This document shows positions 8,537-58,127 of a stretch of 64,000 nucleotides of DNA, piece after piece. Numbering within the stretch: position 1 is the stretch's first letter; each line of letters opens with the position of its first letter. Under the pieces are notes generated by a model, which did no database searches, was not told where the DNA came from, and saw nothing but the letters and a program-made list of their open reading frames with translations. The translations under genes were made by a program, and so were the position numbers. The stretch is taken from contig RXKC01000007.1 of the NCBI GenBank assembly GCA_003962975.1, positions 26,711-90,710 on the forward strand. Reading direction: 5' to 3'. Source of the DNA: Candidatus Saccharimonadota bacterium (lineage in GTDB: Bacteria; Patescibacteriota; Saccharimonadia; Saccharimonadales; AWTP1-31).

Positions 8537-8574
8537 TACCTAAATTGTATCAGCTTAGACTAAGCCATGTAATT

Positions 8575-9723: not shown

Positions 9724-9774
9724 AGGATTTTCCTTTAGATAGTTTTGAAGGTTTTTGGTTTGGTGTTTTGGGTT

Positions 9775-11882: not shown

Positions 11883-12226
11883 AATTGAGCCAGACTTGTG
11901 TCTGACTTATATAATACTTGCTCAATACCCAGGTCACGCCGTGCCCTGTCGTCAATTCGTGAGGACCTAATGTCGGTATGCAGCACAACCCTAACCGCAT
12001 TCCAGTCTGTATAGGATCGTATTTCGTAAAGCAGCTCAATGCCGTTATGCACTGCCATCTGGATCTCTAGGATAAGCACATCGATACTAAGTTGATCCAG
12101 TGCATTAACTGCAGAGGCAGCCGTTTTTCGCCAATGGACCGTATTGCCCGCCCGCTCCAGAGCCTGTTTGTATACTGATCCCAACGTAGTGTCTGGCTCT
12201 ACTAAAAGTATATTCGCCATACTCAC
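11849..12226 (-). CDS. Atypical single-domain response-regulator receiver with Glu at the phospho-acceptor position
   Basis: CheY-like fold with the T (LHT) and K (YKS) positions conserved, but DVLILEIQM carries E where the phosphorylated Asp normally sits. The acidic pocket is EPD. Confidence 0.6.
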   Translation of the reverse strand: MSMANILLVEPDTTLGSVYKQALERAGNTVHWRKTAASAVNALDQLSIDVLILEIQMAVHNGIELLYEIRSYTDWNAVRVVLHTDIRSSRIDDRARRDLGIEQVLYKSDTSLAQLCEAVTASKVI

Positions 12227-17672: not shown

Positions 17673-19214
17673 CTACCGTTCGTAAGTATATTTAATGCCC
17701 CGCTCTTGGGCTGCCTTCATCCACTGATTATTCCCAAATAACATTGCAAGCGCCGCAACACGGTGTTGGCCCTTTGCTACACCACCGTCCTGCTTTGCAT
17801 TAAGCTGTATAATCTCTCTGTTGCCTCGCACAACATCAAACTTACCAGTCAGTAAATCAGTCATGAGTTCTGCTACATAAAGATGGGAAGGAATGGTTGC
17901 AACCTGACGTCCGTTACGTAGTGCCTCGTTCCGTTGCTTGCCAACATTACCCCTAACCCTATCACCAAACCATTGGTACGGTGAGTTTGGGTCATCCTGC
18001 ATTCTTGATTCAATTGCAACGGCGTTCTCGATCTGGCGGGTCAGTTCCGCTAGACGCTCAGGACTAACACCACCCGCCAGTTCATCTGCCCAGGCTTTAA
18101 CCTGCTCATTGCGCACCGGCATCTCATTCTCGGCTGCTGTCTCAGTAGGTGCTTCATCCTGAACTGTAACGCCAAGTCGACTTAGCATATCAACCAGACT
18201 ACGATCAGAGTCAGCTAGTTTTTCACTTAAGGCAGGTAGCTGGGTTTCAAGTGCTTTCCTGACAAGACGCCCCTGCTCCATATCCAGTTGTGGATTAGTC
18301 TTCTTGTACACAATGGTCATGGCTTTTGTGCGTTGATTTAGGAGCCTCAGTTGATTTTGGTATTGGCCTAACTCTGAACGCAGTGATTTTGGTAACAGGT
18401 GCGTTTTACCACCTGTAAGTTCAGTCAGTTTCCGGAAGCCAGGCCCGTCAAGAAAACGATCAAAGGCTTCTTTGTCAGCATGCGCTACATAGGTCGTACC
18501 ACTACCACGATCAGTCTTTTTGAGACCTACTGCGACAGACTGGCGGACTGGATCAAATTCAGTAAGGTAATCTAACGCCGCCTTTATCTTCTCTCGTTCG
18601 TTTCTTAGGGAAGTAACAGCGGCCTCCACTGTGACCTCTGGCGATAGCCCCCATTGCTCACTTAGCTCAGCCATAGCTACCTGCTGTGAATACGTAAGCT
18701 CGCCTTGTTCCTGCTGATCGCTGCGTCCTTCTTCGGCTAGAGATGCGGGCTGCTCTTCGGGGTATTCCATGTCTACTGTCATGTCCTCATCGTCAAACGT
18801 GTCATCAGCTTGCGTGTCTGCAACTGGTTCCATCGCTTCTACTAGACCTGACTCTTCAACGGCTACTTCTCCAATAGCATGAGCAGTCTCCTGATCTGCC
18901 TGAGTTTCGGGTGTAGCTAAACCTTCGTACCATGCCTTAGGTGCTGTGTCCTCTATATCCGGAGTATTCCAGTCACGAAGGTCGCTCACACGAACCCACT
19001 TTTCCATAATCTGATCCCCGGCTTGCGCACTCACGCGTGCGACATCAAGGGGCTGCTGAGTATTAGGATCAATTGCTCGCCCTAACTCTGCGACTTGCCA
19101 TCCACCCTCCATATGACCAGCGCCTCTTTTTACATTTACCATATCAGGAAGACCCAACTGTTGTGCTGGGGAAACATATTGTTCAGCTGACGATGGGCTC
19201 TGCGCTGGAGGCAT
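17673..19214 (-). CDS. Hypothetical acidic protein with a C-terminal ParB/Srx-superfamily-like motif (KGQHRVAAL)
   Basis: The central region is a long D/E-rich low-complexity segment. The C-terminal GQHR motif resembles the DGQHR/ParB-like nuclease fold. The promoter-like region is shared with the next gene. Confidence 0.35.
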   Translation of the reverse strand: MPPAQSPSSAEQYVSPAQQLGLPDMVNVKRGAGHMEGGWQVAELGRAIDPNTQQPLDVARVSAQAGDQIMEKWVRVSDLRDWNTPDIEDTAPKAWYEGLATPETQADQETAHAIGEVAVEESGLVEAMEPVADTQADDTFDDEDMTVDMEYPEEQPASLAEEGRSDQQEQGELTYSQQVAMAELSEQWGLSPEVTVEAAVTSLRNEREKIKAALDYLTEFDPVRQSVAVGLKKTDRGSGTTYVAHADKEAFDRFLDGPGFRKLTELTGGKTHLLPKSLRSELGQYQNQLRLLNQRTKAMTIVYKKTNPQLDMEQGRLVRKALETQLPALSEKLADSDRSLVDMLSRLGVTVQDEAPTETAAENEMPVRNEQVKAWADELAGGVSPERLAELTRQIENAVAIESRMQDDPNSPYQWFGDRVRGNVGKQRNEALRNGRQVATIPSHLYVAELMTDLLTGKFDVVRGNREIIQLNAKQDGGVAKGQHRVAALAMLFGNNQWMKAAQERGIKYTYER

Positions 19215-19310: not shown

Positions 19311-20144
19311 CTATAGATCAGCAGTAGGCTGATATGCGGCAACTGTCTGTCCTGCACATTGCTCTAAATACGCAAACACTTCTTCGATGTTCGTACTAAC
19401 TACTCGCTCAGTGCCGTGTTGCAACGATCGTATTGAGTCATTACCAACCCTCGCATGCTCAAGGCCACCATCGACACCAAAACGCAGATGAGCACTAGCG
19501 CCGTCTGACGGATCGTCATTTGAGTGAACATATATATCCGTATATCCTGCAGATGGACGAAGGTTGTCGTCATATGGCGCATGATAGGTAATATGGATGA
19601 GATCAGCCCGCACAGAATGACTCCATGATTGTGCTCCAATATGATCTATCACCAAAGTTGGTGCTTCACCTAGAAGCGCTGTCGCGCGTATTTTCTCTGT
19701 GTCTGCGCTGGCCCCAAAACGAAAGTGGTTGTTCCACTGCAATTTGTCACCAGGCTTATATGGACCGCCTATTGGGCGGCTCTTAGCATCTTCAATAAGT
19801 ACAGCTGCCCAGCCCGGGTAACTTGCTGACTGATGAGGGATATCAATGGCGGTTTGCAGCAGCTTTATTGCGCCTTTGTTAGGCCCTACGGCTTCATCAA
19901 CAGCAACAGCCATTTGGTGGCGCCACATCTGGTCAATGCCATTGTTTTGGCGTTCTATGTCTCGGTATGACACCCTACCTATTCCGTGCGCCATGCGGTG
20001 TAATCGACTGGTCTCTTGAGCTGGACGCAAAGGCTCACCTCGAGTAGCTGCGCCGTAGGTGCTAAGCAACGAGGGTTTATCTTTTCGTGAAGAATTCTTT
20101 GCCATATCAATATAAACATTAGCATAATATATACAAAAAAGCAA
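19311..20144 (-). CDS. Hypothetical protein (likely start at MAKNSS, 20105)
   Basis: 277-aa ORF. No confident family assignment. Confidence 0.4.
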   Translation of the reverse strand: MLFCIYYANVYIDMAKNSSRKDKPSLLSTYGAATRGEPLRPAQETSRLHRMAHGIGRVSYRDIERQNNGIDQMWRHQMAVAVDEAVGPNKGAIKLLQTAIDIPHQSASYPGWAAVLIEDAKSRPIGGPYKPGDKLQWNNHFRFGASADTEKIRATALLGEAPTLVIDHIGAQSWSHSVRADLIHITYHAPYDDNLRPSAGYTDIYVHSNDDPSDGASAHLRFGVDGGLEHARVGNDSIRSLQHGTERVVSTNIEEVFAYLEQCAGQTVAAYQPTADL

Positions 20145-20187: not shown

Positions 20188-20622
20188 CTAAACAGTTAGG
20201 TGATGCTTGATGCGCTCTACTACATCGGCAATCACGACTTGAGACTTAACCAAGTAATCGTCAGCACCGAGGCTTTGGGCACGCTCTTTGTCACTATCTT
20301 GGCTAAGTGCCGTTAACATTACTACTTTCACCTTAGCGGTTTCAGGAGTGTTGCGGAGGATATCCAAGACATCAAAGCCGCTTACTTTTGGCATCATCAC
20401 GTCCAGGACAATCAGGTCAGGACGGTACTCTAATGCACCTGCGAGAGCATCTTCCCCGTTAGGTACCCTTTTTACATCGAAGCCTTCAGCCTGTAATCTG
20501 GTTTGATAAACGCTGGCTAGCGCATCATCATCTTCGACGAGCAGAATCTTATGTTGCTTGGTTGCGGGTTTTGTTGGTTCATCCATAGTGCTAATGGTAG
20601 TATATTCTACCCACTTTGGCAA
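20188..20622 (-). CDS. Single-domain response regulator (CheY-like receiver); probable start at MDEP
   Basis: Canonical LLVEDDD, LIVLDVMMP (phospho-Asp), MLTA and YLVKS residues. Confidence 0.8.
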   Translation of the reverse strand: MPKWVEYTTISTMDEPTKPATKQHKILLVEDDDALASVYQTRLQAEGFDVKRVPNGEDALAGALEYRPDLIVLDVMMPKVSGFDVLDILRNTPETAKVKVVMLTALSQDSDKERAQSLGADDYLVKSQVVIADVVERIKHHLTV

Positions 20623-34319: not shown

Positions 34320-35105
34320 TTAGTCTTTTTGTTGCAACGCTTTTAACGTTAGTTCAGTTCTGGATCGCGCATAGCTGCAAAAATCGCATGGTCCACCCAT
34401 AGCTGCTTGTCCAACTGCTGGCATATCACCGTCCATACACTCTTTCATTGCTAACAGAGTTTTCTCAACCCATACATCTTGCCCGACATGCGGAAACACA
34501 TTGGTCCGAAATTCAACCACATCGTTGAATGCGTCCTTACTGGCGTCACCGTTAGCATACACAAAATACCCAACGTTACTGACCTGAAAGCCATTCGCCC
34601 GAAGTAGCCATTGGTACACCTCCATCTGACGTCGGTAGCTATCTTGCCAACCACCAGGTGGGTTCAAGTCGGTAATTTCTTTATCTTTTGCTGTAGCTTT
34701 GTAATCAACAACAATCAATTCACCTGCGTCATTGACCCACACATCATCAACTGCCCCAAAAACGTGGAGATTTGTTGGTTGATGTAGTGTGAAAACACCG
34801 ACAAAATTCTCTCGCCACGTATCGATATCGGCATGATCATAGGGCTTTGCCGCAACCTTGAATTTTGTCTGCAGCGGATGCTGCGTCCCTGCTTTGCGGT
34901 GATGGTCAAACTCTTTCTTAAAAAGTTCGTCGATTGCTTTGTTGATGTTGAAGGGTGGTCCACTAGGTCGAGTAATTTTATGTCGTACATCCAACCAAAA
35001 ACAACGTGGACACTGGGTAAAAAGCTCGATTTTGCTTCGGCTTACCTTGAAGGGCGTTTTCTGTCCTGGCACATAGGGCTTACTGCGTTCACGATAATAA
35101 CTCAT
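34320..35105 (-). CDS. Cas4-like PD-(D/E)xK nuclease with a predicted 4Fe-4S cluster (DUF83/RecB-nuclease family)
   Basis: N-terminal Cys in CPRCFW, D...ELIVVDYK catalytic motif, and C-terminal C-x(n)-C-x2-C (KECMDG...CDFCSY). Confidence 0.6.
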   Translation of the reverse strand: MSYYRERSKPYVPGQKTPFKVSRSKIELFTQCPRCFWLDVRHKITRPSGPPFNINKAIDELFKKEFDHHRKAGTQHPLQTKFKVAAKPYDHADIDTWRENFVGVFTLHQPTNLHVFGAVDDVWVNDAGELIVVDYKATAKDKEITDLNPPGGWQDSYRRQMEVYQWLLRANGFQVSNVGYFVYANGDASKDAFNDVVEFRTNVFPHVGQDVWVEKTLLAMKECMDGDMPAVGQAAMGGPCDFCSYARSRTELTLKALQQKD

Positions 35106-35110
35106 CTAGG

Positions 35111-35794
35111 CTATTGTAGCAGCCTTGCTACTGCCGTAACTGCTGCAGTCTCGGCTCGCAGCGTAAAATCATGGAGCGCTATATGCTGAATTTCATTATC
35201 TACAAAAAGTTGTTTCTCGGCGTCGCTCCAGCCACCTTCCGGACCAATCAGGACACCCGTATCATCGCCAGGAAGATCTGGCCCCTGACTGTCTTGCTCG
35301 CAAATATACAAAGTTGCTTTGTCTTTATACTGCTGCAGTGCCTTTTCTACATGCAGTGCATCACGTACCGACGGTATGTCACTGCGACCGCATTGCTCAG
35401 CCGCTTCAATCACAATTTTACGAGCACGCTCTATATTAAAACCAGTTTTTTCGCTCCGGTCAGCGATCATTGGTATTAGGTGGCTCACGCCTAATTCGGT
35501 TGCTTTCTGTAAAACCCAATCGTTCTTATCTTTCTTTAAAAGCGACCAAAAAAGATAGACATTTTTCTTCGGCAATTGTCGTCTGTAGTCCGTAATAAGT
35601 TCTAGATGAGCTTCGTCTGGACGAAGCTCTAGTATCTTATAGAGTCGATCATGTTCTACTCCATCGAATAAAACAATTTCCTGACCAGGCCTAAACCGTA
35701 ATACCTTGGTCCACTGAGATAGTACGACTGGTTCACGAAACCAAAAGTCATGCGTAAGCTTAGTATCAGGACAGTAAAAACGGTGAATCTTCAT
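35111..35794 (-). CDS. rsmE: 16S rRNA (uracil1498-N3)-methyltransferase RsmE
   Basis: SPOUT knot motifs (LIGPEGGWSDAE) and an N-terminal PUA-like region. Confidence 0.8.
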   Translation of the reverse strand: MKIHRFYCPDTKLTHDFWFREPVVLSQWTKVLRFRPGQEIVLFDGVEHDRLYKILELRPDEAHLELITDYRRQLPKKNVYLFWSLLKKDKNDWVLQKATELGVSHLIPMIADRSEKTGFNIERARKIVIEAAEQCGRSDIPSVRDALHVEKALQQYKDKATLYICEQDSQGPDLPGDDTGVLIGPEGGWSDAEKQLFVDNEIQHIALHDFTLRAETAAVTAVARLLQ

Positions 35795-35822: not shown

Positions 35823-36623
35823 CTACGGGCGCAGTGCACCTGCAAAAACCTGCCAAGCTAATGCTGACTTTGCTACTAGGCTCAATACCATATAGGTACG
35901 TTCGCCGTATAGATAGTTACTCCACTTGCCGGTCTTTTTGTACTGCAAGTACATATTGACTGCGAAACTACCGAAGAATACGAATAGGCTGCCGTAAATA
36001 AAGTAAACAAAGGTTGGGATACCCCCTGAACCGTAAACATTGGCACCAATAAAGTAAATGGCCAGCACAATCCACGGCACAATGCCTGCTAATGTACCGA
36101 CCCAGAATGGTAACCAGTCAACTTGTTTGTTGGTTTGATTCTTGAGCTCCATAACAAGACCGAGCAAGTTCATGACAAGCGTTAGTACAAACATCATCAG
36201 TAGCGATGAAAGGTCATAAACCCCAGTCAGGACACCGATAGCGACAATCATCGTGCTGGCGCTAAAGCCGTATTCAATCCACCGAAACTTGTTGATGCCC
36301 TTTTTGAGATCAGCTTCGTACGTTTTACGACCACGAGTCGCCACAACTATGTGAGCGATGGCTGACATAAAGAAAAAGGTTGCCACAAGATGAGCAAGGT
36401 TAACATTAAAGAGTACTTGCGCTGCTGGTGCCAGAACCGGACGCTCAGCTATTTTTGATGCGATGCTGTCTTGGGTTAGAAAACTGGTGGTAATTGGCCA
36501 GCTCACACCCTTACTCAGAATGAGCACCAAAATGCCCTGTACTGCGTGTAGTACGGCTAATCGCTTGTTCCATGTATTTAATGAGCTTGTTGAAATAGTT
36601 GGTGATTTTGTTGTAAGTCGCAT
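35823..36623 (-). CDS. Heliorhodopsin-like seven-TM retinal-binding protein
   Basis: 7 TM, 266 aa. The C-terminal helix SLVAKSALAWQVF carries the conserved Schiff-base Lys. The FRWIEYGFSAS counterion Glu helix and LQYKKTGKWSNYLYGER loop match, as recalled, the characterised heliorhodopsin 48C12. Confidence 0.7.
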   Translation of the reverse strand: MRLTTKSPTISTSSLNTWNKRLAVLHAVQGILVLILSKGVSWPITTSFLTQDSIASKIAERPVLAPAAQVLFNVNLAHLVATFFFMSAIAHIVVATRGRKTYEADLKKGINKFRWIEYGFSASTMIVAIGVLTGVYDLSSLLMMFVLTLVMNLLGLVMELKNQTNKQVDWLPFWVGTLAGIVPWIVLAIYFIGANVYGSGGIPTFVYFIYGSLFVFFGSFAVNMYLQYKKTGKWSNYLYGERTYMVLSLVAKSALAWQVFAGALRP

Positions 36624-36676
36624 ACCACGACTATACCACAGTGCCGTACTCTCTGATGCTATACTGATACTAATCT

Positions 36677-37339
36677 ATGAAAACAAAGCTTCACATTCGT
36701 AACCGAAGTTCTCTTAAGCAAAAACGAGCTGCGCGAGCACCACGTTCAGTTGGTTCTAAAATTGCTATAACCCTTCTCAGCCTTATTGCTATCGGTAGTT
36801 TTACGCTTCTCGTATTTCCCTACATTCCAAAGGTGCTATTTTGGATCACTCGCCCTAGCCTCGATCCAACTAGCTACCGACAAGCAGCTCAGGACACAAA
36901 AAATGGCAAGCCAATCAATGCTGATCAAACTAAGCCTGGCAATCGACTCATCCTGCCAGGCATCGGGGCAGATATTCAGATCATTGAAGGCAGCAACATA
37001 TATGTTATCGGTAAAAACCAAGGAGCCTGGCGCGAGACTCGAGCAGCCAACCCTACACAAAACGGTAACCTAGTTTTGGCGGGTCATCGTTTTATCTATA
37101 ATGTTCGCAATCCAGGAGTTTTCTATAACATGCCCGAGCTTGATGTAGGTGAAAAAATCTTCATTCGCTGGGATAATAAGATGTACGAATACGAGATTTA
37201 TAACACGCGATCAGTACAACCTACTCAAGTCGATATTCGTGACCCAGATCCAAAAGTGTCACGTAAACTTACGCTCTATACCTGTTGGCCGCTTGGTAGT
37301 ACCGCAGAAAGATTCGTGATTGAAGCTAAGCAGCTTTAA
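36677..37339 (+). CDS. Sortase (class E/F-like transpeptidase)
   Basis: N-terminal TM anchor, LAGHR catalytic His, TLYTCWP catalytic Cys, downstream Arg. Confidence 0.75.
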   Translation: MKTKLHIRNRSSLKQKRAARAPRSVGSKIAITLLSLIAIGSFTLLVFPYIPKVLFWITRPSLDPTSYRQAAQDTKNGKPINADQTKPGNRLILPGIGADIQIIEGSNIYVIGKNQGAWRETRAANPTQNGNLVLAGHRFIYNVRNPGVFYNMPELDVGEKIFIRWDNKMYEYEIYNTRSVQPTQVDIRDPDPKVSRKLTLYTCWPLGSTAERFVIEAKQL

Positions 37340-37859
37340 GCTTGTTTTGAAATTTCTGGCGTAGCTTTGTGAGCTTTGGATTGATTATCACCTGGCAGTA
37401 GCCTAGCTGTGGATTTTTATTGAAATAATCTTGATGCTCATCCTCGGCTGGGTAAAAAGTATCCAGCTTTTTTACTTCTGTAACTATGGGGTCATCCCAA
37501 AGTAGTTGTACCTGCGCAATGGAAGACTCGACCACCTGCTTTTGCTCGTCACTGCTATACAAAATAATTGAACGGTACTCAGGCCCCTGATCGTTTCCCT
37601 GATAGTTTAAGGTCGTTGGGTCATGCACAACCCAGAATATGTCTAATATCTCATTGAGGTCCAACTTTTTATTGTCAAAGCTTACTTTCACGACTTCAGC
37701 GTGTCCTGTCGTCTGAGAAGCCACGCTGTAATAGGTTGGATTCGTGGTATCACCACCAGCATAACCGGCAACAACATCATCCACACCTTCGATTAATCGA
37801 AATGCAGCATCTAAACACCAGAAACAACCGCCGCCAAGAACGATACTTTCTTGGCTCAA
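37326..37859 (-). CDS. msrA: Peptide methionine sulfoxide reductase MsrA
   Basis: GGGCFWC active-site motif. Confidence 0.9.
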   Translation of the reverse strand: MSQESIVLGGGCFWCLDAAFRLIEGVDDVVAGYAGGDTTNPTYYSVASQTTGHAEVVKVSFDNKKLDLNEILDIFWVVHDPTTLNYQGNDQGPEYRSIILYSSDEQKQVVESSIAQVQLLWDDPIVTEVKKLDTFYPAEDEHQDYFNKNPQLGYCQVIINPKLTKLRQKFQNKLKAA

Positions 37860-38187: not shown

Positions 38188-39564
38188 CTATTCAGTTCTT
38201 AATGCTTCAATCGGATCCATTTTGGCAGCTTTACGGGCTGGTAGATATCCAGCCAGGATAGCAACAATCATTAATCCAACAATGAGCGCAGCTATTTGAG
38301 AAGGACGGAAAATAAGCAAACTGTTGCCCTCACCAAGGTCAAGCTTCTTGGTAATCCACGGGTTTAAGGGAATGCCGACCAGCAATGCTCCAGCGGATCC
38401 AATTGCTCCACCCAAGAAACCTATCCAACCGGCTTCAAGCATAAAGAGCCTGCGCAGATCACGTTTGCGCATACCCAATGCTTTCATGAGTCCGATTTCA
38501 CGAATACGCTCTAGAACACTAATGTACTGAGTGTTCACAATACCAAAGACGGATGCTATCACGGTAATGAGCCCGAAAACACCTACCAGTGCCTGTAGAA
38601 TATTCACAATTTGGGTGATCGACTGCTGAATTTCTTTGCTACTCATCGTGAAGTATTTCTTGGCTTTTAGATCAGCTTGAGCTGCATCAATACTTGCCTG
38701 CTTTTCACCATCTTTAACCCGCACATACACGTATGTGTATTTGTCATAACTGGGCGTACCCTCGGTAGTGTAATCATACATCTGCTTAGCGTCATTGGTT
38801 GATACCAGTACCGGTAGCGTTCCGAAGTTTATGCTTGTTGCAGCCTTTTTAGTAATCGCGGCAATCGTAAAGGTGCGCATTTGCGATTCAGGTTGTAGCG
38901 TACGCGGATCAACTCCGTTGCGAATGGCCGCCAGTACTTGCTCACCCCCTCCGTCTACAAATGGTTTTTGGATATTAATGCTGATTTTTTTACCAAGCGC
39001 ATCTTTATCACTCTTAAAACCGAGTGCCTTTACATAACCTTCTGGTAACATTACCTGATTGTCAGCGATGTCACCTGTTTTTGGTAACGTCCCAGCTGCC
39101 AGTTCTGGTTTTTGCGCCGGGTTATACGCGGTTGCGCTGAGAGTGAACCTCTTCTGGCCTTCACGAGTTATATATCGAGCTGCCAGCTGATAGTTCTCTC
39201 GGACTTCTTCGATATATGGTAAGCTCTTCAACTCGGTAATATCTTCTGGCGTAACCTGTTTAATCTGCAAACTAGAACCATCACCGCCAATGGCCATAGA
39301 TGTAACGGACTCATCGTATTCTTTGGGCTCGGTTGATGGCGCGCCAGTATTGCTCACTTCTTTGTCGCGTCCAACAATAAGTTCGGATGAGTCAAAGTTA
39401 CTCGTGACTAACCGATCGGTATACTCACGAATTCCGTTGCCGGCTGCTAACGTTATGGTTAATGTAAAGCCCCCGACTGCGATGGCGAGAGAAGTTAGAA
39501 CTGTTCGTAGTTTTGCGCTACGCAGACTGCGCCCACTACGGCGAATAGTATCTTGAATACGCAT
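38188..39564 (-). CDS. ABC transporter permease, FtsX/MacB-like with a large extracytoplasmic domain
   Basis: N-terminal TM helix, about 250-aa periplasmic domain, and a C-terminal 3-TM FtsX domain. Confidence 0.75.
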
Positions 39565-40274
39565 TACTTCTTTGCCCTCGCTACAGTCTTACGAGTTGGT
39601 TTTGTAACCAAACTGTCTATCTTGCCGTCCTTTAGCCTCACTTGTATCTTACAGCGAGCTGCTAGTTCATCATCATGTGTCACAATCACGAGTGTACTGC
39701 CAAGCGTTTTATTAATACTAAATAGTAAATCAATAATCTTATCGCCTGTTGCACTATCGAGGTTACCGGTTGGCTCATCAGCAAAGATAAGTTTTGGACG
39801 ATTAACGATCGCCCTGGCGATTGCTAGTCGCTGCTTTTGGCCTCCAGATAGGTTGCGAGCTCGACTGTTTGCTTTCTCACTCAAATCTACGGCCGCTAAA
39901 GCATCCATGACTCGTTGCTTGCGGTCGCGCCCACGAACCTCCGCAATTTCAAGCGGCAACATAACGTTCTGATAGCATGTCTGGTTACCTTCTACGAAGA
40001 AAGCCTGAAAGATAAAGCTCATTTGCTCAGCCCGAAACGCATCGATCTGTTTGGGCTTCATTTGCTGCAGTACCGTACCGTCAACCGTTACATGTCCGTC
40101 ACTCGGTGTATCTAGACCACTCATGATGTGCATGAGGGTTGATTTACCCGATCCACTTTTACCAATAATAGCCACTGTGGCGCCATCTTTAATGCTTAGG
40201 CTAATGTCGTCGAGCGCTGTAAAAGCACTGTCCTTCTTGCCATACGTTTTCGTAATGTTTGCTACCTCAATCAT
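39564..40274 (-). CDS. ABC transporter ATP-binding protein (MacB/LolD-like)
   Basis: Walker [10 protein letters not shown], signature LSGGQKQR, Walker B LIFADEPT. 1-nt overlap with the permease. Confidence 0.85.
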
Positions 40275-40308: not shown

Positions 40309-41844
40309 TTAGGCTTTGAGCTGTAATCGCTCGATAAGCCAGTCGCGCGGCAGAATGCTCAGGAACCAACCAGCTCGAGGGCCAGATTCTTGATTAATAA
40401 GGACTGTATACAGCGTCGTGAACATTTCTTTTGGACTAAGACCAGTCTCGTCTTTCAATTCGTAGATGGCCTGGTGAAACCAATTGCCATCTGCGTCATC
40501 TGGTGCAGTACGGACCTTATCAGCAAGCGTTTTTAAGAGCGATTGCTGTGCGTCACTAAGTTCCAGATCAGAAATATCTTCGCGCAGCGCAAACTTTGCC
40601 TCTTCTGGAGCCCAGGTATCGAGCCATTTATCAATAAATTGAAGTTCCTGCATGATGACATCGATATCTGCTTCGACTTGCTCAGCGTGCTCGGTACGCT
40701 TAATAATCTCGATAGTTTTAGCCGGATCACGCAGCGCCGACTGGTAGCTAGCCACAAGATGTGAGAATGGTATTTGACTAATGACTAGCTGGTCACCAAG
40801 AGGAGCACGGCATATCTCGAGTAACTGCTCTTCCTGAGGAGTTTTGTCTGCCTTAGCAAGTAAAGCAGCGAACTCGTCAAAGAGTCGCATAACGCCTACT
40901 CCCTGATCAAAATACAGGCGTTTACTTGGTGGATAGACCAACACAAAATAACGAACAAGCTCTGCCGGTAGTACTTGTGTCACCTGCTTAGCTTCGATGC
41001 CAGTACCTTTGCTGGCACTCATTTTTTTGGTGTCGCCCGCCCGATTAATAAAGTCATACGGTACTGGAATTGGTGCAGGTGTTTTAAAGATATCTTCCAT
41101 AATCCCTACACCAGTGTCATACGAACCGCCCTTGGTGGCATGGTCGCGGCCAAATGGCTCGACATGAACATTGAGCATCCACCAGCGAGCTGGCCAATCT
41201 AATCGCCAGTCCAGCTTAACCTCACCCTGGGCATAGCCGGTAACTTTTTCTTCGCCCTCTGGTGTCTGGTAGGTAATCTGCTGACTGGTTGGGTCAATAC
41301 TTATGAAACGACGATTCTTGAGGCGACCAGCTTCCATGATTTGGATAGGTGACCAATGTTCGTCTAACTGACGTCCAGCTACTGTTTCGAGTGTCTTGCG
41401 GGCAGCTGGGACATTGTCTAGCACCTTCTCTATGGCTGGGACAAAAAAACCAGCACGGTATTTTAGATGACTTCGCTCGACAGCCATGTCGATACCTAAA
41501 TCATTAGCTACCGCGATAAAGTCGTCGGCAAAATAATCAGCGAAGGTTCGTTCGCTGCCGTCAGGTGCTGGAATATCGCAAAGCGGCATACCAAGATACT
41601 GTTCAAAGTCAGTTGGGATGTTTATCGGTATTTTGCGTAGAGCATCGAGGTCATCAACAAACTGAATATGTCTGGCCTGGCGACCGCGTCGCTTTAGTTC
41701 AAGCATAACGGCGTCAGCCGTGATTATTTCTCGTAAGTGACCGAAGTGATACGTACCTGAAGGCGAAGCACCAGACTCAATGAGGATCTCTCCTTCTGGG
41801 ACTTGAGCAATAATTTGGTCAACAAGGTTATTTAGCCACTGCAT
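40309..41844 (-). CDS. lysK: Lysine--tRNA ligase, class I type
   Basis: SGASPSGTYHFGH (HIGH variant) and KMSASKG (KMSKS). 511 aa, consistent with class I LysRS rather than class II LysS. Confidence 0.7.
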   Translation of the reverse strand: MQWLNNLVDQIIAQVPEGEILIESGASPSGTYHFGHLREIITADAVMLELKRRGRQARHIQFVDDLDALRKIPINIPTDFEQYLGMPLCDIPAPDGSERTFADYFADDFIAVANDLGIDMAVERSHLKYRAGFFVPAIEKVLDNVPAARKTLETVAGRQLDEHWSPIQIMEAGRLKNRRFISIDPTSQQITYQTPEGEEKVTGYAQGEVKLDWRLDWPARWWMLNVHVEPFGRDHATKGGSYDTGVGIMEDIFKTPAPIPVPYDFINRAGDTKKMSASKGTGIEAKQVTQVLPAELVRYFVLVYPPSKRLYFDQGVGVMRLFDEFAALLAKADKTPQEEQLLEICRAPLGDQLVISQIPFSHLVASYQSALRDPAKTIEIIKRTEHAEQVEADIDVIMQELQFIDKWLDTWAPEEAKFALREDISDLELSDAQQSLLKTLADKVRTAPDDADGNWFHQAIYELKDETGLSPKEMFTTLYTVLINQESGPRAGWFLSILPRDWLIERLQLKA

Positions 41845-46863: not shown

Positions 46864-47427
46864 TTAAACGGTCATTATTTCTTGTTCTTTGGCCTTGGCC
46901 GCAGCTTCGGCATCTGCCTTAGTTTTAGTCATTGCCTCTTCGACCTGCCCCACATACCTTTTTTCATCGTCTTCGCTAATGTCTTTGTCTTTCTTTGCTT
47001 GCTCAAACGTATCAAGCGCATCATGACGCACACTGCGCATGCGCACCATACATTCTTCGAGCTTGCCGCCTACTTGCTTGCTAATCTCACGTCGTCGCTC
47101 TTCGGTAAGTGCAGGAATAGTGACACGAACTACACGACCATCATCAGAAGGATTAAGACCAAGGCTTTGGTTATCGCGAATCGCAGCACTGATTGCCTGC
47201 AAGTTATTTGGATCAAAAGGAGTAATCTGTAGCAGCTGTGCTTCTGGTGCAGATACCGTAGCAACCTGATTGAGTGGCATTGGTGTGCCATAGGCTTCTA
47301 CTGTAACACCGTCTAGCATGCTGGCATTAGCTCGGCCAGTACGAAGGCGCTTGAGCTCTTCCTTGAAATGATCGACTGCTTCGTTGAATTTGGTTTTTGC
47401 TTGATCAACAACCTGATTTGGACTCAC
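46864..47427 (-). CDS. frr: Ribosome recycling factor
   Basis: 187 aa. RRF signature (RTGRANASMLDGVTVEAYGTPMPLNQVATVS). Confidence 0.9.
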   Translation of the reverse strand: MSPNQVVDQAKTKFNEAVDHFKEELKRLRTGRANASMLDGVTVEAYGTPMPLNQVATVSAPEAQLLQITPFDPNNLQAISAAIRDNQSLGLNPSDDGRVVRVTIPALTEERRREISKQVGGKLEECMVRMRSVRHDALDTFEQAKKDKDISEDDEKRYVGQVEEAMTKTKADAEAAAKAKEQEIMTV

Positions 47428-47762: not shown

Positions 47763-48359
47763 TTAGGCGACTTCACCAAGAGCAATGCGGCTAAAGCGAC
47801 GAACAACGACGTTTTCACCAAGTCGTGCGTTAGCATCTTTCACAAGATCACCGACGGTTTGATCAGGATTCTTAATGAAAGGCTGATCGAGTAAACACAG
47901 CTCTGCAAAGTGTTTCTTCAACATACCCTCAACGATATTGTCGAGCATAATTTCTGGCTTACCTTCGGCTTTTGCTTTATCGGTAAACTCAGCCTTTTTA
48001 GCATCACGATCTGCTTCTGGGATGTCGTCAGCACTTACGTAGGCTGGTGAGCTGGCTGCAATGTGCATAGCAACATCTTTTACGAGTTCAGTGAAGCCTT
48101 CGGTTCGGGCTACAAAGTCAGTTTCACAGTTTACTTCTACGAGTACACCTATGCGGTTATCGTGATTGTAAGTACCGACAATGCCCTGTCGAGCCTCGCG
48201 CTCGCCACGCTTCTCGGCCTTGGTAAGACCTTTTTTGCGCATTGCCTCTAGGGCTTTATCAAAGTCACCATCAGCTTCTTCTAGGGCTTTCTTAGCATCG
48301 GTAAGACCAACACCACTGAGAGCTTTTAGTCGCTTAATGTCGTCAATAGATACCTGCAT
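47763..48359 (-). CDS. tsf: Elongation factor Ts (short form)
   Basis: N-terminal UBA-like LKALSGVGLTDAKKAL and a dimerisation core. 198 aa. Confidence 0.85.
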   Translation of the reverse strand: MQVSIDDIKRLKALSGVGLTDAKKALEEADGDFDKALEAMRKKGLTKAEKRGEREARQGIVGTYNHDNRIGVLVEVNCETDFVARTEGFTELVKDVAMHIAASSPAYVSADDIPEADRDAKKAEFTDKAKAEGKPEIMLDNIVEGMLKKHFAELCLLDQPFIKNPDQTVGDLVKDANARLGENVVVRRFSRIALGEVA

Positions 48360-52858: not shown

Positions 52859-53698
52859 TTAGATTGTTTTATCGCCCCAGTCTGACAATGTCAGCACAAT
52901 GAGTACTACTGCGAATACGACAAATACCAGCTGACGTCGTAGGAGCAGTGACATACGGTCAGATTTTTCTAGATAGTAGATACCACCCAGCCCGAAGCTA
53001 ATAACAGATAGCAGCAATGCCGGTTGCGCAACTGAGCCATAAAACAGTAGCCAGTGGCCAAGAATCCACATCATGGCTGCGGCGAAGTATGACCAAACGA
53101 GAGCTAGAAAACGAGTCATTGCCTCTTCAAAGCTGGCAAAAAAGTGTCGCGCAGACATGTATGCAATCACCCAAGCACCAGCCACCAAAACAAACAACGG
53201 TGAGCTACCCCAAGCAATAAGTATGGCAACCAGACCAACAGATTGAGCTACTAACGCTTGCAGCGCAATGCCAAACTGTGAAGCCTGAGGCTTAAGTACC
53301 ACCAGCCAGACGCCGTACAAGACTGCCCACAAGAGCTGGAACAGCTGTGTATCGCTGTGAATCATAAAGACCAGCATAGATAGACCAAAGATCACATCAA
53401 CGGCGTTGGCACGGATACTGGCTGGCCAGTGTCGTGGCTTTACGGCGAACATTCTCCATTTACTGAGCAGAATAAGACTAATCCCTATTTGCAGTTGGAA
53501 AAAGCGCAGCCGTACCAGCACGAATAATAGTGCCGGAAGAAGGCAAACAAGCATGATATGTATAACATGCGAAAAGCCAGCAGCAGGTTTGATCTTTGCG
53601 GTTATTTGTCCCATTTCAGTACCTCTCATTATAACAAACAAGCTTAAGTCTTGCTGAAGATTCATCATAAGCATTGGCGTGTTGGCAGCTCTGATCAA
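52859..53698 (-). CDS. Polytopic membrane protein, function unknown
   Basis: 279 aa with 7-8 predicted TM helices. No motif recognised. Confidence 0.4.
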   Translation of the reverse strand: MIRAANTPMLMMNLQQDLSLFVIMRGTEMGQITAKIKPAAGFSHVIHIMLVCLLPALLFVLVRLRFFQLQIGISLILLSKWRMFAVKPRHWPASIRANAVDVIFGLSMLVFMIHSDTQLFQLLWAVLYGVWLVVLKPQASQFGIALQALVAQSVGLVAILIAWGSSPLFVLVAGAWVIAYMSARHFFASFEEAMTRFLALVWSYFAAAMMWILGHWLLFYGSVAQPALLLSVISFGLGGIYYLEKSDRMSLLLRRQLVFVVFAVVLIVLTLSDWGDKTI

Positions 53699-55316: not shown

Positions 55317-56193
55317 GATCTTCTACCTCCTTAGCTAAACTCTTGTAACTTCTCGCACCTTTTGACCATTTATCATGCTCCATGATCGATTTACCAAAAC
55401 TTGGTGCTTCTGCAAGTCGAACATTACGCGGCACAATAGTTTTCATAAGTTTATCTTTGAAGTGTTTCTTGAGCTCATCCACAACCTGGTCTGATAAAGA
55501 AGTGCGGCTGTCGTGCATGGTTACGACAATGCCTAGTAACTCGAGCTGTGGGTTCAAACCCTGTCTTACTCGTTGCATAACATCGAGCAACTGGCCCAGA
55601 CCTTCAAGCGCATAATACTCTGCCTGCACTGGCACAAGTATATAATTTGCCGCTGACATGGCGTTGATGCTCAAGAGCCCCAAAGAAGGCGGACAATCAA
55701 TAAGTATGTAATCATACTCGAGGTGAGCAATTGCATTCCTGAGCTTGTATTCGCGCTGCAGTTCTCCAGCCAAATCAACCTCTGCAGCAGCTAATTGTGC
55801 ATTGGCAGGCAAGATATGAAGCCCTGCCACAGCAGTGTCCTTAATTATCTGTTCACTCTTAGCATTGCCAAACAACGTATCGTACACCGTGCTGTCTAAA
55901 GTCTGCTTATCGATCCCTACTCCGCTTGTAGCATTACCCTGTGGATCGAGGTCAACCAACAAAACTTTTTTTCCTCGTTTGGCTAAGTAGGCGCCAATAT
56001 TAATAGTAGACGTAGTTTTACCTACGCCACCCTTCTGGTTGAGTACCGCTATGATTCTACCCATATGAATGTATCTATTTAAACATAAGCTTCTGCTATG
56101 TACCACCCCAGTTCCGCTGCAATGCCTATTCGCGGCGAAGGGCGTCGATAGGGCTAATCTTTTGCGCTCGGCGCGCTGGGAAGTAAGCCACAA
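55303..56193 (-). CDS. parA: Chromosome partitioning ATPase ParA/Soj (likely start at internal Met, 56064)
   Basis: Deviant Walker A NQKGGVGKTT. The called N-terminal 43 aa overlap the ABC permease gene, so an internal start is preferred. Confidence 0.85.
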   Translation of the reverse strand: MWLTSQRAERKRLALSTPFAANRHCSGTGVVHSRSLCLNRYIHMGRIIAVLNQKGGVGKTTSTINIGAYLAKRGKKVLLVDLDPQGNATSGVGIDKQTLDSTVYDTLFGNAKSEQIIKDTAVAGLHILPANAQLAAAEVDLAGELQREYKLRNAIAHLEYDYILIDCPPSLGLLSINAMSAANYILVPVQAEYYALEGLGQLLDVMQRVRQGLNPQLELLGIVVTMHDSRTSLSDQVVDELKKHFKDKLMKTIVPRNVRLAEAPSFGKSIMEHDKWSKGARSYKSLAKEVEDRVGK

Positions 56194-57352
56194 TTAAACC
56201 AACGATCAGCATGAAAGCTGTCAGCGCCGCTATGAGCCAAAGTGGCAGCGAGAATATTTCGAAGCGCTCGTTTACTCTTTGGGCAGCATTCTGATTAACT
56301 AGTTCGTTAATGACTCGACTAGCAATGAATGAACCAAACATACCAATGAATACACCGATAAGGGACAAGAGGACTGCTTCAATCATAAACAAGCGGCGCA
56401 TGTCACGTTTACGACCACCTAGGGTTATCATCAAACCAATCTCCTTTGTTCTTTCGAGCAAAGATATAGTCAAAGTGTTAAACATACCGAGAATAGCTAC
56501 GATAATACCAATACCACCGAATCCTGCCAGAATAATATTAAAGAACTTAAATAACTGATTTATTTGTTCAAGGGTATCAATGGGAGAGTTGGTTAGAAAG
56601 CCATTGGACTCAATTTGTTTTCGAAGTGTAGGAATATTACTGGTGTCATCAATGGTTACTTTAACTTGTTTATAAGTCGGAACACCCGCAACATCAAAGA
56701 CTGCACTTGGCACAAATATCTCGTTATTCTGGTCAGAATCGATGACGCCAACAACTTTAAAGGTATCCCGTAATTCATCCGCTTCACTGTCTGCCAATTG
56801 CAACGGCACCACTATCTCGATCTCTTGGCCCACAGCCTTCTTCGGGTCAGTTACACCAATGCCGCGCAAAGCCGACAGGCTAACAAGCGCAGATCGATTA
56901 TCGTTTTTTTGCAACAGCCGTCCTTCGAGTAAATTAAGTGTCGTTAAATCCTGGAAAGTCTGATCGACGCCGTAAATAACCGAATCGATTCCCCCGCCCT
57001 TAAGGGCCACACTCGAGGGGAACGAGTACTCTACGCCCACCTTTTCAATGTGCGGGAACCGACGAATTTTATTAACTGCCGTATCGTTGAGCTTGATAAT
57101 TTTAGAGTTTGGACTGGTTATTTCGATGGTCTTGATCGACTTATCGCCTATCACGTTATCGGTGACCAGCTTCTGTAAACCAAGCCCGAAAGAAATGAGG
57201 AAGGCAATCGATCCGATCCCCACCACAATGCCTGCGATTGTCAGGAATGATCTAAGCTTCTTGCTCGTTAAGTTCCGCCAGGCCATGTAAAACAGGGTGT
57301 TCAGATGAATCTTTGGCCGTTTTTTAATAGTATCGTCTTCTTGATTACGCAT
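56126..57352 (-). CDS. ABC transporter permease, FtsX/MacB-like
   Basis: N-terminal TM helix, extracytoplasmic domain, C-terminal FtsX 3-TM bundle. 8-nt overlap with the ATPase gene. Confidence 0.75.
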   Translation of the reverse strand: MRNQEDDTIKKRPKIHLNTLFYMAWRNLTSKKLRSFLTIAGIVVGIGSIAFLISFGLGLQKLVTDNVIGDKSIKTIEITSPNSKIIKLNDTAVNKIRRFPHIEKVGVEYSFPSSVALKGGGIDSVIYGVDQTFQDLTTLNLLEGRLLQKNDNRSALVSLSALRGIGVTDPKKAVGQEIEIVVPLQLADSEADELRDTFKVVGVIDSDQNNEIFVPSAVFDVAGVPTYKQVKVTIDDTSNIPTLRKQIESNGFLTNSPIDTLEQINQLFKFFNIILAGFGGIGIIVAILGMFNTLTISLLERTKEIGLMITLGGRKRDMRRLFMIEAVLLSLIGVFIGMFGSFIASRVINELVNQNAAQRVNERFEIFSLPLWLIAALTAFMLIVGLIVAYFPARRAQKISPIDALRRE

Positions 57353-58127
57353 CTTGTTTCTTCCTTGCTAGATGGTCTATACGAGCCTTCATCTGATTAA
57401 GCAATGTTTCCGTAGTCTCGCTAATATCGCCACTTTGCATCTGCTGGCATTGCCCGTCCTGGATGTGCACCAGTTGGTCTGCAAGTGGCAAATACTCCAT
57501 ATTATGTGTCACCAGAATGATCGTACGATTAAGGTCTCGCTGATAGCTTTCAAGCAGAGCCATAATCATGTCACCATTCTTGCTATCCAGACTTCCCGTT
57601 GGTTCGTCGGTAATGATTACCGATGGATCATTTACAATAGCGCGAGCCATGGCAATACGCTGTTGCTCACCACCAGATAGCATGAGTGGACTTTTCTTGG
57701 CAAAAGGTGCCATGTCTACTCGTTGCAGCGCGTCCATAGCTTTTTTGGCCGCTGCAGCACGGTTATAGCCCAAAAAGAACAGTGGAATCGACACATTTTC
57801 GATGACATTAAGGCTATTCACCCAATAGTTCTGCTGGTAGACCACCCCTATACTTTTTGCCCTAAAGTAGGCTAGTTGTTCGGCGGAATACTTGTATATA
57901 TCTCTACCGTCGTATGTAACCTGCCCACCACTGGGAACCTGGATACCACTCAGGACATTGAGAAGGGTTGATTTACCCGACCCTGAAGGGCCATAGATAA
58001 TGTTGAAGGAGTTCTTTTTGATTGTGAAACTACTTGGATGAAGTACTTTGAGCATCTCTTCTCCAATCTTGAAAGATTGCTCCAGGTTGCTAACACGAAT
58101 AAGAATTTGCCCACCCTCGTCTTGCAT
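57345..58127 (-). CDS. ABC transporter ATP-binding protein (MacB-like)
   Basis: [24 protein letters not shown] motifs. 4-nt overlap with the 3' end of the giant surface-protein gene. Confidence 0.85.

Follow-up and report, generated by a model that had tools for sequence, protein, structure and literature searches.

The window analyzed here is a 64-kb stretch of DNA. It contains an open reading frame (ORF) of 266 amino acids that encodes a canonical heliorhodopsin, lying between housekeeping genes. The features of the locus, and two genes of the window that are discussed below, are the following:

35823..36623, minus strand: heliorhodopsin coding sequence (266 aa, ATG start; coordinates include the stop codon)
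35111..35794, minus strand: rsmE, 16S rRNA methyltransferase (PF04452 and PF20260, PUA), 28 bp downstream of the heliorhodopsin gene
34320..35105, minus strand: PD-(D/E)XK nuclease-family gene (PF12705), the downstream anchor of the conserved slot
36624..36676, no strand: divergent intergenic region of 53 bp between the heliorhodopsin and sortase starts, presumed promoter region
36677..37339, divergent to the heliorhodopsin gene and 53 bp from it: sortase (PF04203)
37326..37859, minus strand: msrA, peptide methionine sulfoxide reductase (PF01625), with the sortase gene between it and the heliorhodopsin gene
46864..47427: frr (profile annotation of the window)
47763..48359: tsf (profile annotation of the window)

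The preliminary description, made from the sequence, had called the gene heliorhodopsin-like and pointed to PF18761, and this assignment was confirmed by two curated profiles, the diagnostic residues, and the predicted fold. PF18761 matched over its full length (profile positions 1-242/242; 305.1 bits, cutoff 26.7; E = 4e-91) and was the sole Pfam family found in the ORF at E <= 0.01, and the NCBIfam equivalog NF038020 ('heliorhodopsin HeR') gave 308.8 bits (cutoff 100, profile positions 1-244/244). A phmmer search of the PDB retrieved TaHeR (6is6, E = 1.4e-70) and 48C12 (6su3, E = 4.9e-54). The deposited protein RTK94429.1 (Candidatus Saccharibacteria) is identical to the ORF and is labeled 'hypothetical protein'; the present identification mends that label and adds one more heliorhodopsin to a lineage rich in them. 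The identical protein was present on 10 contigs from several independent samples, and more than 100 database relatives share 62-84% identity with it. A pseudogene reading was rejected, the ORF being intact and the profile covered end to end.

Three motifs had been quoted from the protein, and all were found in the ORF: FRWIEY, which starts at residue 113 and contains E117; LQYKKTGKWSNYLYGER, which starts at residue 226; and SLVAKSALAWQ, which starts at residue 248 and contains S248 and K252. Their match to the family prototype 48C12 had been described as almost residue for residue, which held for the motifs (11/11 for SLVAKSALAWQ, 5/6 for FRWIEY, and 14/17 for LQYKKTGKWSNYLYGER) but not for the whole protein, with only 44.5% identity. 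On alignment, the equivalents of 48C12 K241, E107, H23, and H80 were K252, E117, H26, and H91, so the lysine of TM7 is in place, and S248 corresponds to 48C12 S237, forming the TM7 SxxxK motif with K252. These positions, together with those of the lateral opening, map to the window as follows:

35868..35870, minus strand: K252 codon (AAG), Schiff-base lysine in SLVAK (48C12 K241; from the sequence and the 48C12/TaHeR alignment)
35961..36107, minus strand: TM5-TM6 fenestration segment with F173, T177, G180, F217, G218, and A221 (mapped by the 48C12 alignment)
35970..35972, minus strand: G218 codon (GGT), glycine for a usually conserved asparagine (from the sequence)
36273..36275, minus strand: E117 codon (GAA), Schiff-base counterion in FRWIEY (48C12 E107; from the alignment)
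36351..36353, minus strand: H91 codon, Schiff-base cavity (48C12 H80; from the alignment)
36546..36548, minus strand: H26 codon, Schiff-base cavity (48C12 H23; from the alignment)

When the 120 closest homologues were compared, Lys252, His26, and His91 were found in all 120, and Ser248 and Glu117 in 119/120 each.

The AF2 model (pLDDT 92.1, pTM 0.87) featured seven TM helices (residues 12-36, 76-95, 112-133, 138-161, 171-197, 204-229, and 237-264), and it displayed both the antiparallel AB hairpin (strands 42-51 and 64-74) and the helical B-C loop (short helix 99-107) typical of heliorhodopsins. Foldseek superimposed the model on 6is6 with TM-scores of 0.87/0.93 and an rmsd of 1.9 A, and every one of the top PDB matches was a heliorhodopsin. 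Type-1 rhodopsins reached a TM-score of at most 0.67 at an identity of at most 14%; with the SxxxK motif in TM7 and no match to PF01036 (type-1 rhodopsin) in a Pfam search of the 266-aa protein, a type-1 reading was discarded. Lysine and arginine residues numbered 10 on the side of the N-terminus and 4 on the opposite side, a charge distribution that predicts a cytoplasmic N-terminus and thus an inverted topology, with residues 96-111 and 230-236 as predicted cytoplasmic loops.

Among the solved structures, TaHeR from the Thermoplasmatales archaeon SG8-52-1 (6is6, 7clj, and 7u55) was the nearest, with 50.6% identity. It shares with the query the SLVAKSALAWQ helix, the counterion, the histidines, the fenestration residues, and a methionine at the position of 48C12 Q213, but it belongs to an archaeal host, has Asn and Cys in place of query Gly218 and Thr177, respectively, and has an AB loop six residues shorter. 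For 48C12, from a freshwater actinobacterial fosmid (6su3, 6su4, 6uh3, and 9ljj), the TM-scores to the model were 0.85/0.88; SLVAKSALAWQ is identical, FRW(V/I)EY is one residue off, and H23, H80, E107, S237, and K241 are all matched, whereas Gln213 and Ser112 are replaced by Met224 and Ala122 in the query, which is the TaHeR-like state.

The 60-odd closest GTDB species carrying relatives are Saccharibacteria, which supports Candidatus Saccharibacteria, an episymbiont-type CPR lineage, as the host. An episymbiont-type lineage had already been proposed from the gene content, and the evidence cited for it was upheld in each particular: a class I LysRS is encoded (PF01921; TIGR00467, 353 bits), pyrH is missing at tsf-frr, where only a 91-aa ORF without a family match lies between the two genes, and the order hpf-secA-(M16 peptidase)-prfB-ftsE-ftsX-(CHAP)-ctp was recovered. 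Heliorhodopsins occur in monoderm organisms (PMC8612252), and the Saccharibacteria host and the sortase (PF04203) agree with this. The sortase implies a Gram-positive-type wall and a single-membrane envelope, and the heliorhodopsin would therefore be reachable from outside. The names of the metagenome-assembled genomes (MAGs) carrying canonical relatives suggest groundwater, activated sludge, and soil, where light is scarce.

Pfam evidence was obtained for 66 of the 72 candidate ORFs of the window, the other six being short (60-85 aa), and no beta-carotene dioxygenase, phytoene synthase or desaturase, lycopene cyclase, or type-1 rhodopsin was found among the 66, in keeping with the earlier statement that no blh or crt genes occur in the 64 kb. 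A 279-aa multi-pass membrane ORF of Blh-like size (52859..53698) was considered as Blh and rejected, with no Pfam (E <= 0.1) and no NCBIfam match. In 80 related loci, the neighbors up to 3.5 kb on either side likewise included no retinal or carotenoid family. Since the window spans only 64 kb, a genome-wide absence of blh and crt is taken from genome surveys published for other Saccharibacteria: rhodopsin-bearing members lack blh, and host-supplied retinal was proposed for them (Jaffe et al. 2022, PMC9296517). TaHeR likewise comes from an organism that does not synthesize retinal, and its fenestration was proposed to admit the chromophore from outside (PMC9385722). In the survey of Chiriac et al. 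2022 (PMC9166423), 80 heliorhodopsins were assigned to Saccharimonadia, and SLVAK ranked among the most common TM7 motifs. The preliminary description had presented the source of the retinal as a puzzle; the window does lack any gene of the pathway, but the question is less open than it was framed, having been treated in PMC9166423, PMC9296517, and PMC9385722. A heliorhodopsin in Saccharibacteria without retinal synthesis is thus real and already described in the literature.

The Saccharimonadia heliorhodopsins of PMC9166423 (NCBI 'heliorhodopsin HeR') belong to the same lineage and family and carry an SLVAK-type motif. The SacRs (PMC9296517), type-1 rhodopsins of the same phylum, provide a parallel case, since they too depend on retinal although their genomes lack blh; they rapidly took up added retinal, and host Actinobacteria were proposed as its source. 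Reconstitution of the apoprotein in about a minute has been reported for both TaHeR and the SacRs. They differ in being outward proton pumps with a DTS motif and N-out topology, and the query lacks the type-1 signature.

The neighbors named in the preliminary description, rsmE and a divergently transcribed sortase, were both recovered by their profiles. The rsmE gene is probably co-transcribed with the heliorhodopsin gene, and a scan of the gap between them revealed no terminator-like site. A consensus scan of 36624..36676 gave no sigma-70-like site, so its promoter role is only inferred; for both scans, the counts showed no excess over shuffled controls. The tRNA scan of the window returned nothing relevant.

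Comparison of the 80 related loci, 49 of which were syntenic, revealed a fixed slot, msrA–HeR–PD-(D/E)XK–serS–hpf–secA, in about 49 species. The most frequent upstream neighbor of the slot in Saccharibacteria was msrA (31/49 syntenic loci; directly adjacent and on the same strand in 11), and PD-(D/E)XK followed downstream in 44/80 loci (43/49 syntenic). By species, the immediate neighbors were rsmE, a HAD hydrolase, a RumA-like methyltransferase, or PD-(D/E)XK downstream and a sortase, msrA, or DUF427 upstream. Unbiased ORF clustering within +-3.5 kb of the 80 loci detected no constant immediate neighbor and only housekeeping families. The rsmE and sortase genes, flanking the heliorhodopsin gene in only 24/49 and 12/49 syntenic loci, respectively, are not specific partners. 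Median identity across loci was 62% for the heliorhodopsin, 60% for SerRS, and 65% for PD-(D/E)XK, and the heliorhodopsin co-diverged with its neighbors (Mantel rho 0.38-0.42, p = 0.001), which indicates vertical inheritance in one slot under about as much constraint as seryl-tRNA synthetase experiences. Synteny, co-divergence, and base composition (the GC content around the gene does not differ from that of the remaining window) contradict a recent horizontal transfer. Not all Saccharibacteria have a canonical gene in this slot: some carry diverged heliorhodopsin paralogs there, and in others it is empty. With the PD-(D/E)XK gene as the synteny probe, an empty slot was seen in 16/31 informative related loci. 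The occupation of a fixed slot in about 49 species and the co-divergence with neighbors are new in this analysis.

Several candidates for a functional partner were examined and set aside. The clustering of neighbors in the 80 loci, yielding housekeeping families alone, left no operon-encoded partner, and since the immediate neighbors differ between species, none can be named. A MacB-type ABC pair (38188..40274) lies 1.6 kb off, past three genes, and occurs in only 17-21/49 loci. Adjacent two-component signaling, proposed in PMC8612252, did not apply, as the only receiver-domain proteins encoded are about 15 and 24 kb off and no histidine kinase was detected in the 64-kb window. The ten published groups of heliorhodopsin neighbors (glutamine synthetase, photolyase, ABC exporter, and others; PMC11109279) were not found adjacent to the gene. 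No dedicated partner is therefore encoded beside the heliorhodopsin, and the neighboring msrA is the only recurrent functional hint. Its adjacency agrees with a proposal in the literature by which heliorhodopsins prime the defense against light-induced oxidative damage (PMC9166423, PMC8612252). The msrA adjacency is also inseparable from plain conserved gene order.

The residues lining the lateral opening, as defined in a preprint (10.1101/2025.11.27.691015), correspond between the query and 48C12 as F173=F162, T177=C166, G180=G169, F217=F206, G218=N207, and A221=A210. Small and aromatic residues thus still make up the set, which points to a putative lateral fenestration beside the beta-ionone ring. 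Position 218 was occupied by N in 65, S in 44, M in 4, A in 3, and F in 2 of the 120 homologues, and Gly, smaller than the Asn that it replaces, was unique to the query. The substitution is real, given that the identical protein recurs on the 10 contigs from several samples; being a one-off where 109/120 relatives have N or S, it is no selected feature of a clade. The occurrence of Gly218 at the opening is new in this analysis.

The slot of other Saccharibacteria also harbors heliorhodopsin-family proteins without the Schiff-base lysine, the counterion, and both histidines. One subfamily of 38 members has Lys and Glu in 0/38 each, but R104, W105, and N101 in 38/38 and E230 in 37/38. The lysine-free proteins scored 66-132 bits with Pfam, retain the heliorhodopsin fold, and share the slot context, with msrA directly upstream. 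They are old paralogs, 23-40% identical to the window heliorhodopsin, with one tandem pair in L023, and they have evolved under constraint (pN 0.30 vs pS 0.77; dN/dS 0.22-0.29 where measurable). No description of lysine-free heliorhodopsins was found in the searchable literature, and neither these paralogs nor the fixed slot nor the Gly218 variant was found described in the papers on Saccharimonadia heliorhodopsins (PMC9166423). The maintained lysine-free subfamily is new in this analysis.

On what heliorhodopsins do in the cell, the literature offers differing proposals (PMC11109279, PMC8612252, PMC7049168), among them the regulation of partner proteins (PMC11109279). For the window gene, we consider it likely that the product is a canonical heliorhodopsin serving as an all-trans-retinal-binding, non-pumping light switch that is vertically inherited and loaded with scavenged retinal. 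By analogy with 48C12 and TaHeR, the protein would bind all-trans-retinal at K252 and pass through a slow photocycle without pumping ions, and characterized relatives suggest that it may work as a light-dependent switch by making contact with other proteins. Judging by the genes present in the window and by the published genome surveys, the cell itself probably makes no retinal; on the same basis, the apoprotein would be loaded through the lateral opening with retinal scavenged from the host or the community.

Alternatively, the main task of the protein may be independent of the chromophore, with the scaffold taking part in a housekeeping process, as its partner or regulator in the membrane, and retinal or light being a modulator at most. 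This would account for slot-mates that have lost the lysine, counterion, and both histidines and yet are maintained in the same context with a retained fold, and it would suit canonical relatives from MAGs named for groundwater, sludge, and soil. However, the window protein keeps all retinal-pocket residues and the fenestration set, the (near-)invariance of the lysine, both histidines, and the counterion in the 120 relatives would hardly be expected unless chromophore binding were under selection, and the lysine-free forms are such distant paralogs that their function may have changed, so we regard this reading as improbable. We also strongly doubt that the protein is a two-chromophore light harvester with a host xanthophyll antenna in the opening, for which Gly218 would give room. 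The proposed carotenoid-site residues F173, T177, G180, F217, and A221 are present, and the Asn that marks the difference of heliorhodopsins from xanthorhodopsin, Gloeobacter rhodopsin, and Kin4B8 is here the Gly of carotenoid-binding type-1 rhodopsins. The idea stems from a single preprint (10.1101/2025.11.27.691015) based on structure comparison and docking, with no measured binding; moreover, Gly218 stands alone among the 120 close relatives, and an antenna makes little sense on a protein with no known energy-converting output.

Transport of ions, energizing the membrane of a respiration-poor cell in the manner of viral heliorhodopsins, appears very unlikely for the window protein. Proton transport was shown for viral members, as cited in PMC11109279 and PMC12873467, and CPR bacteria have few other routes to a proton gradient (PMC9296517), but the transporting viral subfamily has no fenestration site and a strongly different retinal pocket, whereas the query is nearest to TaHeR (51%) and 48C12 (44%), which are among the characterized cellular heliorhodopsins without detected ion transport (PMC7049168). 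That the gene is a recently transferred or decaying passenger with no role here is scarcely credible: the patchy distribution of heliorhodopsins and the frequency of empty slots would agree with it, but the reading frame is uninterrupted and matches the profile over its full length, its position is constant in about 49 species, its divergence parallels that of housekeeping neighbors, its base composition is not atypical, and the same protein turned up unchanged in several independent samples.

With the light-switch reading preferred, the window gene illustrates the published idea that a retinal photoreceptor is retained in the tiny genomes of episymbionts, with neighbors supplying the chromophore. 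Saccharibacteria combine a very small proteome with a fixed chromosomal position, and the same slot provides natural 'experiments' in canonical, diverged, lysine-free, and absent forms; this contrast makes the search for partners and the correlation with light versus dark habitats directly testable. The window gene itself is ordinary, and it is the lysine-free relatives that deserve further study. Two observations count against the light-switch reading: these relatives persist in the slot, which suggests that the scaffold has a light-independent use as well, and canonical relatives come from MAGs whose names suggest light-poor habitats. We tentatively entertain, though consider rather unlikely, that the msrA–HeR–PD-(D/E)XK slot is an old locus in which tandem-derived paralogs repeatedly lost the chromophore site, purifying selection has nonetheless preserved them with R104, W105, N101, and E230 intact, and the core activity of the scaffold is chromophore-independent. 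If so, the core activity might be, for instance, binding or regulating a conserved partner through the cytoplasmic face, the canonical protein of the window would be a retinal-gated version of it, and comparing canonical and lysine-free forms in genomes of about 1 Mb could expose the targets of heliorhodopsins. A precedent is offered by the opsins without a retinal-binding lysine of Becker et al. 2016, as cited in PMC10308929; these are described there as type-1 opsins, and the likeness concerns the lysine-free relatives (L103, P0123-P0163), not the lysine-bearing window gene.

The open reading frame at 35823..36623 was confirmed on the minus strand, with an ATG start and a product of 266 aa in which the three motifs quoted in the preliminary description start at residues 113, 226 and 248. 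The protein scored 305.1 bits against the heliorhodopsin (HeR) profile PF18761 (gathering score 26.7), covering the full profile, and 308.8 bits against NF038020, the NCBI curated equivalog 'heliorhodopsin HeR' (cutoff 100). All six significant solved-structure matches in the PDB were heliorhodopsins, led by TaHeR from Thermoplasmatales archaeon SG8-52-1 (PDB 6is6; E = 1.4e-70) and followed by the family prototype 48C12 (E ~5e-54). The identical database protein RTK94429.1 is called 'hypothetical protein EKI60_03540 [Candidatus Saccharibacteria bacterium]', a label older than the NCBIfam model. Ten contigs carry the identical protein with the same neighbours, and the six listed contigs represent six different samples.

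Alignment to 48C12 and TaHeR, using native numbering, placed K252 (Schiff base), E117 (counterion), H26 and H91 at the positions of 48C12 K241, E107, H23 and H80, leaving the chromophore site intact; S248 corresponds to 48C12 S237. Among the 120 closest database relatives, H26, H91 and K252 were invariant (120/120 each), and E117 and S248 were each conserved in 119/120. A match to 48C12 'almost residue for residue' had been proposed, which holds for the motifs but not for the whole protein, with 44.5% identity to 48C12 and 50.6% to TaHeR. The AlphaFold2 model, built from an alignment of 120 homologues, was confident (pLDDT 92.1, pTM 0.87) and featured seven helices, with the family's characteristic short helix between B and C and a long A-B beta-hairpin formed by strands 42-51 and 64-74. 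Its TM-score to 6is6 was 0.87/0.93 (rmsd 1.9 Å), compared to at most 0.67 for type-1 rhodopsins, at identities of 14% or less. Ten Lys and Arg residues lie on the N-terminal membrane side versus four on the other, a distribution that fits the predicted inverted, N-in topology.

The putative lateral-fenestration residues F173, T177, G180, F217 and A221 were all present; the equivalent positions form the lateral fenestration and a proposed carotenoid site according to a 2025 preprint (10.1101/2025.11.27.691015). The same preprint reports a conserved Asn at the lateral opening of heliorhodopsins, and Gly at the position equivalent to 48C12 N207 in carotenoid-binding type-1 rhodopsins. The window's protein has Gly218 (codon 35970..35972) instead of this Asn. 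Gly218 was unique among the 120 relatives (N in 65, S in 44) and was treated as a curiosity, not a clade feature.

A scan of GTDB species representatives retrieved 80 loci, about 65 of them from Saccharibacteria at 50-74% identity, followed by other CPR lineages, Thermoplasmata and Anaerolineae. In 49 of the 80, HeR occupied one shared slot, in the order proS–greA–(lysS)–(ABC)–(DUF427)–msrA–(sortase)–HeR–(rsmE/HAD/RumA-like)–PD-(D/E)XK–serS–hpf–secA. The immediate neighbours varied across these 49 loci: rsmE was adjacent in only 24 and sortase in 12, and neither can therefore be called a specific partner. Upstream, msrA occurred most often, in 31 loci, 11 of which had it right next to HeR on the same strand. 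A recent import of HeR was considered and is contradicted by its co-divergence with this neighbourhood and by its unremarkable GC content. Median identities were similar for HeR (62%), SerRS (60%) and the PD-(D/E)XK protein (65%), indicating similar divergence rates, and HeR pairwise distances tracked those of SerRS and the PD-(D/E)XK protein (Mantel rho 0.38-0.42, p = 0.001). HeR is inherited vertically under housekeeping-like constraint. The window's gene is an ordinary, canonical heliorhodopsin, and its lineage was already known to encode this established family: of about 98 heliorhodopsins that Chiriac et al. (2022; PMC9166423) inferred from 1326 screened CPR genomes, 80 belonged to Saccharimonadia, and the TM7 motifs seen most often were SLVAK, SLIAK and SFVAK. 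Within the same gene order, the class I LysRS reported for this organism was confirmed by profile at 40309..41844; 14 related loci (L031, L035, L038, L041 and L070 among them) instead encode a class II LysRS of about 506 aa upstream of HeR, at a median of 547 bp, between greA and HeR. It looks as if one LysRS class was displaced by the other in place.

The 80 GTDB loci contain HeR by construction and are biased for presence or absence. This bias was removed by taking the conserved PD-(D/E)XK protein encoded downstream as the probe against metagenome contigs (loci L087-L166), the slot being defined as the interval between msrA/greA and the PD-(D/E)XK gene. Occupancy was polymorphic: among the 31 probe loci also holding an upstream anchor gene, the slot was occupied by a heliorhodopsin-family gene in 15 and lacked one in 16. 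Among the full-length in-slot proteins that were aligned across all probe loci, eight were canonical (47-59% identical to the query) and thirteen were divergent (23-40%), the latter with PD-(D/E)XK neighbours at 54-72%. All ten divergent occupants tested exceeded the PF18761 threshold (66-132 bits). The divergent occupants retain R104, W105 and E230 (48C12 numbering); H23, H80 and the counterion are gone from most of them, and five lack the Schiff-base lysine. Their non-synonymous divergence was far below the synonymous (pN 0.30 vs pS 0.77 in one example; dN/dS 0.22-0.29 where measurable); these genes are maintained, under purifying selection. The lysine-free heliorhodopsin-family genes of Saccharibacteria, by locus of the related genome or contig, were:

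L103, 5421-6365 (+), lysine-free gene
L110, 17-772, lysine-free gene
L118, 957-1832, lysine-free gene
L122, 925-1905, lysine-free gene
L151, 3120-3917, lysine-free gene

In these proteins the Schiff-base Lys, the Glu counterion and the two cavity histidines are all missing, and N101, R104, W105 and E230 are kept. A database search with one of them returned 41 cluster representatives (P0123-P0163), one of which, 100% identical to the search query, carries the NCBI automatic name 'heliorhodopsin HeR [Candidatus Saccharibacteria bacterium]'. In the 38 aligned members of this lysine-free subfamily, the lysine position held A, S, V or T and never Lys (0/38), the counterion position G in 34/38 and Glu in 0/38, the H23 position Leu in 36/38, and the H80 position F, Y or L; N101, R104 and W105 were each conserved in 38/38 and E230 in 37/38. 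A lysine-free model of moderate confidence (pLDDT 74) matched heliorhodopsin structures best, with a TM-score of 0.70/0.83 to 6is6. Independent gene calls placed two members between msrA on one side and a HAD hydrolase on the other, followed by PD-(D/E)XK, serS, hpf and secA, with intergenic gaps of 46-56 bp and 3-4 bp.

Locus L023 carries a canonical HeR (8001-8801) and, in tandem, a diverged member (8864-9784) in which Arg takes the place of the Schiff-base Lys and the N-terminus bears a Lys/Thr-rich tail of 60 aa. Because both copies occur together there, the diverged forms are best read as old tandem paralogs differentially retained by lineages; the window has only the canonical gene. No description of lysine-free heliorhodopsins was found in the searchable literature, and at least one curated survey excludes such sequences by design. 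These paralogs in the same slot are a more novel lead than the window's gene, on whose function their bearing is unproven. Most diverged paralogs have Lys/Thr/Ala-rich low-complexity N-terminal tails of 35-90 residues on the predicted cytoplasmic side (proteins of L087, L097, L103, L118, L122, L124, L125 and L128, and P0123-P0137), which canonical proteins lack.

Of the window's 72 candidate ORFs, 66 had Pfam evidence, and their content is housekeeping, envelope and transport. On this basis, the proposed lack of blh and crt genes in the 64 kb was borne out (beta-carotene dioxygenase, phytoene synthase and desaturase, and lycopene cyclase were all absent), and no type-1 rhodopsin was found there. 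The retinal-source puzzle drawn from this absence is real, but not new: earlier papers had already raised it and sketched an answer. Jaffe et al. (2022, PMC9296517) showed that type-1 rhodopsins of Saccharibacteria pump protons and that it takes them no more than 30 s to take up retinal when it is added. They found no blh in the genomes concerned, proposed actinobacterial hosts as the retinal source, and explicitly likened the uptake to that of TaHeR. The TaHeR host likewise lacks retinal synthesis, and a fenestration above the beta-ionone ring is the proposed route for exogenous retinal (PMC9385722). The heliorhodopsin observation is confirmed, and its original interpretation is supported by profiles, residues, fold and the absence of retinal genes from the window. 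By analogy with characterised relatives, the window's HeR would bind retinal, would have a slow photocycle without ion transport, and may signal via protein contacts; genome surveys in the literature, together with the intact fenestration, suggest that the cell obtains its retinal by scavenging, from the host or community. Chiriac et al. (2022; PMC9166423), after Bulzu et al. (2021; PMC8612252), suggested that heliorhodopsins may be tied to defence against oxidative stress. The position of msrA next to HeR would fit this idea but is inseparable from the conserved gene order, and it persists for the lysine-free paralogs too. The names of Saccharibacteria MAGs with canonical relatives (L017, L022, L026, L027, L029, L044 and L045) suggest groundwater, activated sludge and soil, and also lakes, which contrasts with the statement confining type-1 rhodopsins of CPR to sunlit habitats.

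Two further genomic traits had been described correctly: the sole ORF between tsf and frr encodes 91 aa without a family match, leaving no pyrH there, and the order hpf, secA, prfB, ftsE, ftsX, ctp holds, genes for an M16 peptidase and a CHAP-domain protein lying in between. A multi-pass membrane protein of 279 aa (52859..53698, minus strand) was considered as a Blh-type retinal synthase for its similar size and had no family support, matching nothing in Pfam or NCBIfam. Two stand-alone response-regulator receiver proteins (11849..12226 and 20188..20622, both minus strand) had no recognisable histidine kinase in the window, and the nearby ORFs 12223..12957, 13055..13720, 17673..19214 and 19311..20144 gave no significant family matches. 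A 348-aa protein (5452..6498, minus strand) has a KwaB-like domain (PF16162, 35.3 bits, over the cutoff); against the NCBIfam KwaB equivalog it scored 36, far short of the required 200. No partner KwaA was recognised, and an NYN-domain gene (4854..5438) adjoins the KwaB-like one. The msrA ORF (37326..37859, minus strand) extends mechanically to 177 aa from a TTG, compared to the 152-aa product called on the contigs with the identical HeR, and its 3' end overlaps that of the convergent sortase gene (36677..37339, plus strand) by 14 bp. A 1788-aa protein (58130..63496, minus strand), probably a large one of the cell surface, has repetitive Trp/Gly-rich segments ahead of its Laminin_G_3, fibronectin type III and purple-acid-phosphatase-N-like domains; a MacB-type ABC pair (56126..58127) adjoins its gene.
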